UHGV virus genome: UHGV-0113946
From: a virus
Direction: 5' to 3' (one strand)
DNA: 12,303 nt
In this document: one piece after another, positions 2,227-5,893 of the stretch
Numbering within the stretch: position 1 is the stretch's first letter
Layout: each line of letters opens with the position of its first letter
Position numbers and translations under genes: made by a program
Notes under the pieces: model-generated
Databases searched by the model: none
What the model was told of the DNA's origin: nothing
What the model saw: only the letters and a program-made list of their open reading frames with translations

Positions 2227-3117
2227 ATGAAGAAAAAATACGAACTGGTTGTTAAAGGGATAAATAATTACCCGGATAAGATTACTGTTACTGTGGCACT
2301 GGAAGTTGGTGGGTATCCGTCACTGTTGTTGCCAGATGTGGCGATTAGTCTTGACCGTACTGAAGGTGCCACGCTGGAGTTTTACGAAGCTGAGGCGAAA
2401 AAGCAGGCGAAGCAGTTTTTCATGGATGTTGCTGCCGGGTTATGTGAAGGGAACGAACCGTTGCCGGAAAAGCGCCCCATAATTTTAGAGGCGCAAAATG
2501 TGTTGATAACCTACAAAGGAAAGCTACCGGGAAGAATTACTGATTCTCTGAAGATGCCGCCGTCAACACTGCGGTCAGAAAAAGATGATGTTGAATCACG
2601 TATTGAAAAACTGGAGAGCTACGTCGTTGAGCTGAATAAGAAATGGTCGATATTGGTGCCTTCTGGCGATGAAAAGCAGTTTGCTGCGTTTGACGATTAT
2701 TGTCGGAAAGTGATGAGCAGAAATCTCGCAGAGTGTTTCAGTATTCATAATGATAATTTCAGTGAGCTGGAATGGGAGTGTAACCGGCCATCCTTTGTTG
2801 TATCCGGTGATGGTGGGAAAATAACCATCTCAGAAAATGGGAAAGTAACACCTCCATCGCACCAGCACAGTGAGGAGCTCATTGAATTTGCCATTGATTA
2901 CCTGAAGAACAATAAAAAACAGGGGCTGATGCAGCGCATTGGTCGTTGCATGGGGTATCTGCAGGTAGCCGCTGAGATTGAAGCGCTGGCCAGTGGTGCT
3001 GATAAGGATGCAGTTGTGCGGGAGACCGTTCTTCGTGATTTCAATACTCCACCCTTTAAGACTGAGCCTGATAACTGGATCCAGCCGGGGCTGACTTATC
3101 TTAAAGTGCGTATTTAG
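2227..3117 (+). CDS. Hypothetical cytoplasmic protein (296 aa) inserted between holin and endolysin; no recognised domain
   Basis: Long ATG-initiated ORF; GGAGAG Shine-Dalgarno 7 nt upstream, start only 4 nt after the holin stop; markedly AT-richer than the flanking genes (first 60 nt about 30% GC); no signal peptide or transmembrane segment; predicted coiled-coil segment near residues 115-140. Confidence 0.75.
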   Translation: MKKKYELVVKGINNYPDKITVTVALEVGGYPSLLLPDVAISLDRTEGATLEFYEAEAKKQAKQFFMDVAAGLCEGNEPLPEKRPIILEAQNVLITYKGKLPGRITDSLKMPPSTLRSEKDDVESRIEKLESYVVELNKKWSILVPSGDEKQFAAFDDYCRKVMSRNLAECFSIHNDNFSELEWECNRPSFVVSGDGGKITISENGKVTPPSHQHSEELIEFAIDYLKNNKKQGLMQRIGRCMGYLQVAAEIEALASGADKDAVVRETVLRDFNTPPFKTEPDNWIQPGLTYLKVRI

Positions 3118-3153
3118 TGGGCCAGGGACAGCGGCTGAATATTTAATATATCC

Positions 3154-3687
3154 ATGAACACCAAAATCAAATACGGCCTGTCGGCTGCCGTTCTGGCGCT
3201 GATTGCCGCTGGTGCGCCTGCGCCTGACATTCTCGACCAGTTTCTGGATGAAAAAGAAGGTAACCACACCACGGCATACCGTGATGGTGCGGGTATCTGG
3301 ACCATCTGCCGTGGAGCCACCCGGGTGGATGGTAAGCCTGTTATTCCTGGCATGAAGCTGTCGAAGGGGAAATGCGACCGGGTTAACGCCATTGAGCGTG
3401 ATAAGGCGCTGGCATGGGTGGAGAAAAACATCAAAGTGCCACTGACTGAACCCCAGAAAGCGGGAATTGCGTCATTCTGTCCTTACAACATTGGCCCCGG
3501 TAAGTGTTTCCCGTCGACGTTTTATAAACGAATTAATGCAGGCGATCGCAGGGGAGCGTGTGAGGCGATTCGCTGGTGGATTAAGGACGGTGGCAGAGAC
3601 TGCCGTATTCGCTCAAATAATTGCTATGGTCAGATATCCCGTCGTGACCAGGAGAGCGCGCTGGCGTGCTGGGGAATCGACAGATAA
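3154..3687 (+). CDS. R: SAR (signal-anchor-release) endolysin, lysozyme family
   Basis: N-terminal Gly/Ala-rich weakly hydrophobic segment (GLSAAVLALIAAGAPA) typical of SAR domains, followed by a T4-lysozyme-like catalytic E...D...T arrangement (DEKEGNHTTAYRDGAGIWT); position after the pinholin. Confidence 0.85.
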   Translation: MNTKIKYGLSAAVLALIAAGAPAPDILDQFLDEKEGNHTTAYRDGAGIWTICRGATRVDGKPVIPGMKLSKGKCDRVNAIERDKALAWVEKNIKVPLTEPQKAGIASFCPYNIGPGKCFPSTFYKRINAGDRRGACEAIRWWIKDGGRDCRIRSNNCYGQISRRDQESALACWGIDR

Positions 3688-3777: not shown

Positions 3778-3820
3778 AAAACCCCGTTTGTTGGCTGCAA
3801 GCGGGGTTTTGTGTTTCTGA
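3778..3820 (+). terminator. Putative intrinsic terminator downstream of the endolysin gene
   Basis: Stem aaaaccccg (3778-3786) pairs with cggggtttt (3802-3810), with further pairing inside the loop, followed by a T-rich stretch gtgtttctg; located about 90 nt after the R stop codon. Confidence 0.5.
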
Positions 3821-4040: not shown

Positions 4041-4172
4041 ATGTCAGACAAACTCATAACGCTGGCGAAGATCCTCTGTGTAATTGTCGGCATTTCATTT
4101 TCACTAATGCTGGTTGCTCTTTTTCTTTCCATGGCCTGGATGATGTTGTCTTCGTCGGGGCTGCTGGGGTGA
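4041..4172 (+). CDS. Hypothetical small membrane protein (43 aa)
   Basis: ATG at 4041 with GGGAGG Shine-Dalgarno 7 nt upstream; almost entirely one transmembrane segment ([26 protein letters not shown]); its stop overlaps the Rz start region. Confidence 0.45.
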
Positions 4173-4669
4173 ACATAAACCGAATGCTTTCCGCGTTTAT
4201 CGTTATTCTGCTGGTGGCCTGTGGAGCGCTGTGGATGGCAACAGACCATTACCGTGATAACGCGATTACCTACAAAGCGCAGCGCGATAACAAAGCCAGT
4301 GAACTGAAGCTGGCGAACGCAACTATTACTGATATGCAGGTGCGCCAGCGCGATGTTGCTGCGCTCGATGCAAAATACTCGAGGGAATTAGCCGATGCGA
4401 GAGCTGAAAATGAAACTCTTCGCGCTGACGTTGCCGCTGGTCGTAAGCGCCTGCGGATCAACGCCACCTGTCCAGGCTCCGTGCGTGAAGCCCCCACCAC
4501 CTCCGGCGTGGATAATGCAACCGGCCCCCGACTGGCAGACACCGCTGAACGGGATTATTTCATACTCAGAGAACGGTTGATGACAATGCAGAAGCAGCTG
4601 GAAGGGGCGCAGGAATATATCCGCACTCAGTGCACTAAGCTGGCTTTTTATTATCCGGAGGATACATGA
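4169..4669 (+). CDS. Rz: Rz inner-membrane spanin (i-spanin), lambda-like
   Basis: N-terminal transmembrane segment then [14 protein letters not shown]...[10 protein letters not shown]...VAAGRKRL...[10 protein letters not shown]...[13 protein letters not shown], closely matching lambda Rz as recalled. Start is either GTG 4169 or ATG 4184 (ambiguous). Confidence 0.85.
4395..4580 (+). CDS. Rz1: Rz1 outer-membrane lipoprotein spanin (o-spanin), embedded out of frame within Rz
   Basis: [20 protein letters not shown] lipoprotein signal with lipobox Cys, then proline-rich [26 protein letters not shown], closely matching lambda Rz1 as recalled; entirely inside the Rz reading frame in a different frame. 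Confidence 0.8.
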
Positions 4670-4890
4670 AGAAATTACGGGTAACCGTAGAACCTTTTCA
4701 GGGAACAATTCCGTTCCGTATTTTGCAGCGTGGTCGTGTTCTTGTTGAAGGTTCGTTCAGTGGTAAATGTACGCAATTACACTCCCGGACCTTTCAGGTG
4801 AATGCCACGAATGAAGAGCTAACCGTGGAGTGTACGATGAATGCCGCTAAATGCCGCATGGTATCCGCTGCATTACAGCCAGTGTGTTGA
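4666..4890 (+). CDS. Hypothetical protein (74 aa) translationally coupled to Rz
   Basis: ATG overlaps the Rz stop codon (ATGA at 4666-4669); no recognisable domain; four Cys residues. Confidence 0.4.
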
Positions 4891-5228
4891 GCGACCTTAT
4901 TATCCATGCGCGGTATTGTCGCCGTATTCCTGCATTAACAGAGACCGCAGCCCGACAGGGAGACTCCTCTGCGCGAGTGTGCGGGGATAATCAAAAACGA
5001 TACACACCGGGGTTTACCGCGTTAACGGAGCGCGGCGTTGTCCCCTCATGGTCGCTGGTCCGGTGCGATGGTGGAAGAAACCGGACGATGTGTTACCTCG
5101 CATGACCTGTTATGTCATGTGTCTGATTTGTGATTTAAGTCGGATAATTGTCGTTGCCATTAAGCAGAGGATTGATGGCCGACAGGGTGGCATTGTTAGA
5201 ATAAGACTTATTCTTATCTGTGCCGGGA

Positions 5229-5561
5229 ATGAAAATGAAAAGAAATCTTCCGTTAATTATTTTGTTGTCTTCTCTGGTTATGGGCTGTACGCAACATAAA
5301 ACAGATATGCCCCGACAGTTGGTTAAGGCATTACCACAATATCCGGCCTATGCAGCGGCAAATTATATAAAGGGACGGGTTGATGTGAAGTTTGATATTG
5401 GTGCTGATGGTACTGTCACCCGAATTGAGTTTATCCGTTCAGAGCCGCACCATCTGTTTGATGAGCAGGTTGTAAAGGCGATGGCAAAATGGCGATTTGA
5501 GAAGGACAGGCCGCGTAAAGGCGTGAAGAAATCGTTTATCTTTAGTCCTTCTGCACCCTGA
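5229..5561 (+). CDS. Lipoprotein consisting of a TonB C-terminal domain (TonB_C-like), probable moron
   Basis: Signal peptide MKMKRNLPLIILLSSLVMG followed by Cys (lipobox-like LVMGC; residue +2 is Thr, not Asp). The mature region LPQYPAYAAANYIKGRVDVKFDIGADGTVTRIEFIRSEPHHLFDEQVVKAMAKWRFEKDRP aligns by eye with the E. coli TonB C-terminal domain as recalled ([61 protein letters not shown]). AT-rich relative to the flanks. Alternative starts at GTG 5220 or ATG 5235. Confidence 0.8.
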   Translation: MKMKRNLPLIILLSSLVMGCTQHKTDMPRQLVKALPQYPAYAAANYIKGRVDVKFDIGADGTVTRIEFIRSEPHHLFDEQVVKAMAKWRFEKDRPRKGVKKSFIFSPSAP

Positions 5562-5692: not shown

Positions 5693-5893
5693 TCATTTCT
5701 CGTTATTTGTCATGCTGGTCGGGCGCAGATGCGTTGCATCTGTTGCCAGCCTTCTCCTGCAGGCTTCAATAACCCACGCTGAAAAGTTACCGGACCCTTT
5801 ATGCTCAAGGGCTATGTTGATTTGTTCAATTATGTGATTGGGGAAACGGATATTGCGGGTTGTGGTTCTGCGGGTCCGGTTTTTCGATGACAT
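5693..5893 (-). CDS. Small ribbon-helix-helix-like protein (66 aa), resembles DUF3950 / YlcI-type prophage proteins
   Basis: Minus-strand ORF; preferred start is the internal Met (MSSKNRTRRTTTRNIRFPNHIIEQINIALEHKGSGNFSAWVIEACRRRL) with AAGGA Shine-Dalgarno 7 nt upstream. The beta-strand / helix / turn / helix pattern is typical of Arc/CopG-type RHH folds. Family assignment is from memory and tentative. Confidence 0.55.
   Translation of the reverse strand: MSSKNRTRRTTTRNIRFPNHIIEQINIALEHKGSGNFSAWVIEACRRRLATDATHLRPTSMTNNEK

Follow-up and report, generated by a model that had tools for sequence, protein, structure and literature searches.

Locus and Family Assignment

The DNA analyzed here, referred to as the window, is a stretch of 12,303 nucleotides from the virus genome UHGV-0113946, and corresponds to the start of the late operon of an Escherichia lambdoid prophage resembling Shiga toxin (Stx) phages, with approximately 95% identity over 97–98% of its length to prophages in genomes of Shiga toxin-producing E. 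coli (STEC). On the + strand, at positions 2227–3117, it carries an open reading frame (ORF) of 891 bp that starts with ATG and encodes 296 amino acids plus a stop codon. The ORF is located between the gene of a P21-type class II holin, or pinholin (2007–2222, + strand; 71 codons; PF04971, E = 1.9e-32; PHROG holin families), which has dual starts at M1 (2007) and M4 (2016), and the lysozyme gene R (3154–3687, + strand; PF00959, E = 6e-24), whose product is of the signal-anchor-release (SAR) type as its N-terminus resembles a SAR domain.

Profile and database searches indicated that ORF 2227–3117 is almost certainly a member of the YdfR/DUF1327 family in its long form, with two domains. Residues 1–100 matched the Pfam model PF07041 (DUF1327) with 149.3 bits against a cutoff of 25 (E = 3.8e-44), and the protein aligned end to end with PHROG 1085 (residues 1–296 on profile positions 1–296, E = 4.3e-184). 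Its homologs bear the RefSeq name “YdfR family protein,” and BLASTP against the founding member, YdfR of E. coli K-12 (b1555, P76160, Qin prophage), which also belongs to the DUF1327 family, revealed 47% identity over 77 amino acids (residues 1–77, E = 1e-21). The best full-length nucleotide match was an intact 296-amino acid ORF in a complete E. coli genome (96.7% identity). A preliminary description of this DNA had stated that the protein could be matched to no known family, which these results refute. The family has a name and no assigned function: PHROG 1085 carries no functional annotation, as is the case for all nine PHROG families matched, and the NCBIfam search returned no functional match, only a spurious one of 12.8 bits. 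A Pfam scan of 67 aligned members gave no consistent match outside DUF1327, the best hit of the profile search against PDB sequences had an E-value of 0.14, and the Foldseek similarities to double-stranded RNA-binding domains were weak and not significant (E about 0.5–0.9) and represent a lead only. In the literature, “DUF1327” was mentioned in one paper, in passing, and one informative paper was found on “ydfR”; a query with rrrQ, essQ, and ydfR added nothing, and the titles and abstracts retrieved with pinholin, SAR endolysin, and “between the holin” concerned the lysis systems of other phages and not this gene.

The ORF is a real gene and not a chance reading frame, because it is intact in six homologous loci with a ratio of non-synonymous to synonymous substitution rates (dN/dS) of 0.31–0.63 over its whole length. 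Its start codon lies 4 nt (AGCG) after the holin stop codon (TAA, 2220–2222), and the GGAGAG sequence that serves it (2214–2219) is embedded in the 3′ end of the holin gene. No terminator-like site was found between the holin gene, the ORF, and R, nor does the ORF have a promoter-like site upstream on the same strand. The predicted product has an isoelectric point (pI) of 5.4 and is near certain to be a soluble, cytoplasmic protein, with no transmembrane segment (maximum Kyte-Doolittle mean over 19 residues of 1.16) and no signal peptide, the N-terminus being devoid of a hydrophobic core. The size of the ORF, its spacing from the holin gene, the nature of both flanking genes, and the lack of membrane or export signals had all been given correctly in the preliminary description. 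The same description had taken the composition of the ORF as a sign of horizontal acquisition. The compositional contrast is real, with a guanine-cytosine (GC) content of 45.9% against 54.0% for the window and 54–55% for the holin gene and R, but it is modest and shared by other accessory genes of the window, such as a TonB-like gene (44.4%) and orf4666 (47.1%). The family as a whole has a GC content of 44–47% in E. coli as well as in Salmonella, in agreement with a moron-like origin. The idea of an acquired insert holds in the sense of a dispensable module, absent from phages of the 24B/933W type, but not in the sense of a novel one.

Domain Architecture and Selection

The protein was divided into three parts. 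The N-domain, or DUF1327 core (residues 1–75; 2227–2451, + strand), matches PF07041 and is predicted to consist of a beta-beta-beta unit and a long helix, with a predicted local distance difference test (pLDDT) score of 72–90 in the AlphaFold2 model. It is followed by a hypervariable linker (residues 76–185; 2452–2781, + strand), delimited by its length variation, low pLDDT, and dN/dS, and by a C-domain (residues 186–296; 2782–3114, + strand) with three strands and four helices predicted (pLDDT 72–95). The overall pLDDT of this model, the second one obtained, was 68. The linker comprises a basic segment (residues 76–118, pI 9.4), a helix with heptad pattern (residues 122–143, nt 2590–2655), and a second helix (residues 149–171), and its pLDDT falls below 50 for residues 73–120 and 162–182. 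In the predicted helix 122–143, the hydrophobic residues I126, L129, V133, L136, W140, and L143 occupy the a/d positions with 3-4-3-4 spacing, so the coiled-coil predicted in the preliminary description corresponds to a short heptad helix. Across 129 two-domain homologs, the length of the linker varies from 4 to 150 amino acids.

The C-domain contains the motifs GRCMGYLQVAAEIE and F-(D/N)-x-PPFK..W..PG..YL (FNTPPFK in the window), and the family alignments revealed H214, G239, L245, Q246, and A249 as invariant. It matched no Pfam model in any of the 67 members, and no structural relative of it was found. An internal duplication of the beta-beta-beta-alpha unit was considered on account of the matching secondary-structure patterns of the two domains, and was rejected after hhalign of the N- against the C-domain gave a probability of 0.15% (E = 0.39). 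The dN/dS was 0.23–0.38 for the C-domain and about 0.8–1.3 for the linker when compared with close relatives. Judged from such substitution rates, the gene is under moderate purifying selection (dN/dS 0.3–0.5).

Full-length relatives were found in both Escherichia and Salmonella. In orf5 of the Stx2-converting phage 86 (268 amino acids) and BCI50300 of Stx2_95 (329 amino acids), both of PHROG 1085, the two-domain protein is encoded in the same slot and the C-domains are 82–87% identical to that of the window, while the linker modules differ from it by insertions and replacements. Hypothetical proteins of Salmonella enterica prophages (for example P0126, 192 amino acids; P0147, 305 amino acids) have the same N-domain, linker, and C-domain layout and the same invariant C-domain residues, and are encoded in a late-operon neighborhood likewise containing a class II holin and a lysozyme. 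Their overall identity to the window protein is about 30%, with 39% in the C-domain versus 24% in the N-domain, and the C-domain is therefore the best-conserved part between the genera. The Salmonella-type sequences, 48 of the 67 in the alignment, fall below the Pfam DUF1327 model, which 18 members match; their N-domains are nevertheless homologous to DUF1327 according to hhalign (82.6% probability, E = 1e-5). K-12 YdfR, with 103 amino acids, is unlike the 296-amino acid form in having the N-domain only, without the coiled-coil linker and the C-domain. From the comparison of these homologs it was concluded that the long form would be the ancestral architecture and K-12 YdfR a truncated, N-only version of it. 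The best-conserved part of the family is thus one that has no Pfam model, and as K-12 YdfR consists of the N-domain only, experiments carried out with it may miss the real activity of the family.

Linker-like sequence was also observed outside the family. The window ORF at 4666–4890, which lies downstream of Rz and encodes 74 amino acids, shares 48% identity with the N-terminus of the 181-amino acid protein P0137, and the C-terminal half of P0137 is a coiled-coil linker module of the YdfR family; therefore, the linker module also recombines onto unrelated small proteins of the late region.

Distribution, Mosaicism and Decay

The distribution of the gene in E. coli was determined by megablast against 5426 complete genomes. 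Some part of the ORF was matched in 3143 of them and at least 80% of it in 496, so that, far from being an orphan insert, it is a fuller version of a gene family found in over half of the complete E. coli genomes (K-12 among them) and in many Shiga toxin phages. The holin type was matched at 8935 places in these genomes, the N-domain region at 5833, and the C-domain region at 938. Among phage records, the holin/R cassette occurred in 369 and the N-domain in 100, with the C-domain kept in only 5 of those 100.

An exhaustive phmmer search with residues 114–296 against 1.84 billion representative proteins returned 25 relatives only, a C-domain profile search 69 proteins, and a scan of one genome per species 3 loci. 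Every named homolog from these searches was from Escherichia, Shigella, or Salmonella, the remainder being metagenome sequences, and none of the three revealed new domains or remote homologs with informative domain fusions. In a set of 258 collected proteins, 129 had both domains, 62 the C-domain only, and 60 the N-domain only, and in a search seeded with the Salmonella proteins 80 of 114 clusters had both. Large protein clusters are full length, for example those with 962 and 648 member sequences.

The ORF of the window is itself a recombinant, because some genomes contain copies of its N-domain with 100% identity and its C-domain is 99.7% identical to a C-only allele of 185 amino acids in strain IBS28, but its best full-length match reaches only 96.7%. 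A C-only allele also occurs directly after the holin gene, in E. coli as well as in Shigella. Copies that are truncated, have lost a domain, or are frameshifted are no rarer than intact long forms. In the prophage of STEC 2012EL-2448, which is among the most window-like overall, an allele of the 329-amino acid type (L022, 2013–3001) is frameshifted into ORFs of 194 and 135 amino acids, which shows ongoing decay of the gene. The preliminary description had suggested that disruption in most homologous prophages would point to a decaying remnant; disrupted copies are indeed frequent, but the intact ones are under purifying selection.

In three of the genomes inspected (AF14, AVS0790, and ATCC 25922), the RefSeq pipeline labeled no more than the first 112 codons, as “YdfR family protein, pseudogene, missing C-terminus” (L002 8001–8336; L015 and L016 1201–1536), although the 296-amino acid ORF is intact in all three. 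These pseudogene calls are a systematic annotation artefact, probably caused by a family model that covers the N-domain only.

Taken together, the YdfR-family gene is almost certainly a non-essential accessory of Escherichia and Salmonella lambdoid prophages, encoded where the late operon begins, at its promoter-proximal end. Gene, family, and position had all been catalogued before; what is added here is the ancestral two-domain architecture, the conserved C-domain that lacks a model, the definition of the alleles of the slot between holin and R, and the annotation artefact.

Alleles of the Holin–R Slot

Comparison with related prophages identified carriers and non-carriers of the gene and set the boundaries of the alternative module at 4 nt after the holin stop codon and inside R. 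The ydfR-family genes of K-12 Qin (essQ-ydfR-rrrQ), BP-4795, mEp460, Evi, and PhiR42_1 have the same start, 4 nt after the stop codon of the holin gene, which is likewise of class II with the lysozyme gene downstream; a match to the N-domain was also obtained in H-19B. In phages of the 24B/933W type, which lack the gene, holin and lysozyme are adjacent and R itself starts 4 nt after the holin stop codon by means of the same GGAGAG. The order holin-ydfR-lysozyme is thus a frequent alternative allele of the lysis cassette, which weakens the premise of the preliminary description that the position of the ORF between holin and endolysin is exceptional, and the finding is fairly ordinary.

The right boundary of the alternative module falls within R, the first ~6 codons of which read MNTKIK with ydfR and MSRKLR without it. 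The junction ...ATATCC-ATGAAC is common to all five E. coli phage alleles that contain the gene, K-12 having ATATCT. In the window, an AU-rich spacer of 36 nt (3118–3153, + strand), recognized by the junction comparison, separates the ORF from R, instead of the overlap between the ydfR stop and the rrrQ start (ATGA) found in K-12. No Shine-Dalgarno sequence precedes R in the ydfR-bearing alleles, which have an AU-rich leader in its place, and the 36-nt leader RNA of R is predicted to be unstructured (z = +1.17). The gene therefore has an effect in cis: it takes over the GGAGAG embedded in the holin gene and leaves R without a Shine-Dalgarno sequence. This displacement of R from the holin-embedded ribosome-binding site could alter the ratio of holin to endolysin in phages of the Stx1/Stx2c type relative to those of the 933W type. 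These comparisons support the view of the gene as a dispensable accessory module in a variable position of the late operon that is co-transcribed with the holin gene and coupled to it in translation.

The genomic context differs in Salmonella, where the gene is located between the antiterminator gene Q and the holin gene and not between holin and lysozyme, with toxin-antitoxin and ArtA-like toxin genes as neighbors. In at least two loci, a convergent ORF separates the gene from the holin, and one locus has a holin of another family (PF16080). What is conserved is therefore a position at the promoter-proximal end of the late operon, and not a fixed pairing with a P21-type holin.

Convergent small ORFs (86–105 amino acids) were observed after the YdfR-family gene in some relatives (L014 1385–1699, L008 4599–4916, L003 3852–4112, and L010 4881–5141, all on the − strand). 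The one of phage 86, orf6, precedes R and is 45% identical to a Salmonella ORF (E = 3e-35); a second pair shares 32% identity, and none belongs to a Pfam family. The convergent ORF and the YdfR-family gene may form a conserved two-gene module. Such a two-gene system was rejected for the window, from which the partner ORF is absent.

Possible Function

The only experimental information on the family comes from a study of K-12 YdfR (PMC13232886, RNA Biol 2026). Its residues 1–72 were sufficient for a bacterial two-hybrid signal with RNase E 1–597. From lysates, Strep-YdfR co-eluted with Rne1-598, and it co-purified with RNA that was resistant to DNase I. In the same study, few transcripts responded to overexpression of YdfR, which was not toxic, and ydfR had almost no reads in uninduced cells. 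By analogy, the reading that we tentatively prefer, with low confidence, takes the long form to be a cytoplasmic factor, expressed late, that may act on RNase E or on RNA. In this model, the DUF1327 N-domain would dock on host RNase E, at its catalytic N-terminal half, and/or on RNA, in line with the report on K-12 YdfR. The linker, through its heptad helix, may drive oligomerization, and the role of effector or partner-binding module would fall to the better-conserved C-domain. Such a protein, produced early in the late phase, would modulate RNA decay rather than attack the envelope, with the long late transcript being stabilized or host mRNA turnover altered as possible outcomes. The family gene always lies between Q and the lysozyme gene, including the locus with the different holin family, and this constant position favors early, abundant late expression over a partnership specific to the holin. 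In a more detailed version, which we consider improbable, DUF1327 would anchor the protein to the catalytic half of RNase E and the C-domain would reprogram RNA decay as the late phase begins, so that the ~25-kb late transcript is protected or the moment of lysis is set by way of mRNA stability; K-12 YdfR would then be a truncated docking module.

Proteins of virulent phages that modulate RNase E are T7 gp0.7, T4 Srd, and phiKZ Dip. If the link with RNase E holds, the likeness to them is a functional analogy only, that of a phage protein of lytic growth binding RNase E, as no similarity of sequence or fold was detected and those proteins are from virulent phages. Should the RNase E link hold for the long form, it would provide a rare example of the main RNA-decay enzyme of the host being targeted by a temperate phage; if the link has no function in the long form, interest in the finding is moderate to low.

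The main competing explanation, which we consider somewhat improbable, is that of a lysis-timing regulator, a cytoplasmic protein that would adjust the moment at which lysis is triggered, either by binding to the pinholin at its cytoplasmic tail or by acting on the SAR lysozyme. It would be comparable to the T4 antiholin RIII and the endolysin regulators of phage Mu (PMC9239132), which resemble the window protein in being soluble or cytoplasm-facing proteins encoded beside holin and endolysin and have no homology to it. The tight linkage of the gene to holin-lysozyme cassettes in two genera, its translational coupling to the holin gene, and the altered translation context of R in its presence all agree with such a role, as does the detection of ydfR in a genetic screen for envelope integrity (cited in PMC13232886), although the envelope phenotype of the K-12 ydfR knockout could, as we infer, be a polar effect on rrrQ. 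Against it, the protein has no lysis-related Pfam match, none of its nine PHROG matches is annotated for lysis, and it has no membrane or SAR segment; in addition, the Salmonella gene lies upstream of the holin, with the intervening convergent ORFs and the PF16080 holin described above.

A moron directed at the host, causing superinfection exclusion, abortive infection, or anti-defence, is an unlikely explanation, and the abortive-infection or anti-defence pattern raised in the preliminary description received no evidence in its favor, the search of the PADLOC-DB defence models having given no match (best PbeC, E = 0.05, 9.8 bits). The low GC content in both hosts, the high mosaicism of the family, the location of the Salmonella copies in a moron zone from Q to the lysis genes beside toxin genes, and the conserved convergent ORF of some relatives, which suggests a two-gene module, are all what would be expected of such a gene. 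However, the ORF has no promoter-like site of its own, the window lacks the convergent partner, and K-12 ydfR is near-silent in uninduced cells (PMC13232886), so that a role in the lysogen is unlikely. It is also improbable that the gene is a decaying passenger, essentially without function, whose only consequence is in cis, through the spacing of R from the holin gene and its Shine-Dalgarno sequence. The many Stx phages without the gene, the rarity of the C-domain relative to the N-domain in phage records and E. coli genomes, the frameshifted copy in one of the most window-like prophages, and the nearly neutral evolution of the linker point in this direction; on the other side stand the low dN/dS of the C-domain in intact copies, the large full-length protein clusters, and the persistence of the two-domain architecture with its invariant C-domain residues down to 30% identity across genera.

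Other Features of the Window

The gene order of the window starts with a nanS-p-type sialate esterase gene at the 5′ end (7–1329), followed by the small DUF1378 and DUF826 genes between the esterase and the holin genes. After holin, ORF 2227–3117, lysozyme, and small ORFs, the lysis cassette is completed by the Rz i-spanin gene (4169–4669, + strand; PF03245, E = 3e-49), which contains, out of frame, the gene of an Rz1-type o-spanin (4395–4580, + strand; lipobox VVSAC), as expected for a two-component spanin. Then follow a TonB_C-like lipoprotein gene and, in the 3′ part of the window, the genes of an HNH endonuclease, the small and large terminase subunits, and the head proteins. No Rfam family is present in the window. 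Seven terminator-like sites were observed against 2.5 expected from shuffles, including two long hairpins on the + strand, one just after R (3778–3810, stem of 14 bp) and one just before the holin start (1940–1969, stem of 13 bp). The TonB_C-domain gene (5220–5561; 44% GC), situated between the lysis cassette and the HNH/terminase genes, has a lipoprotein-like N-terminus (LVMGC) and looks like a moron, and a TonB_C gene is similarly placed in the distant relative L020.
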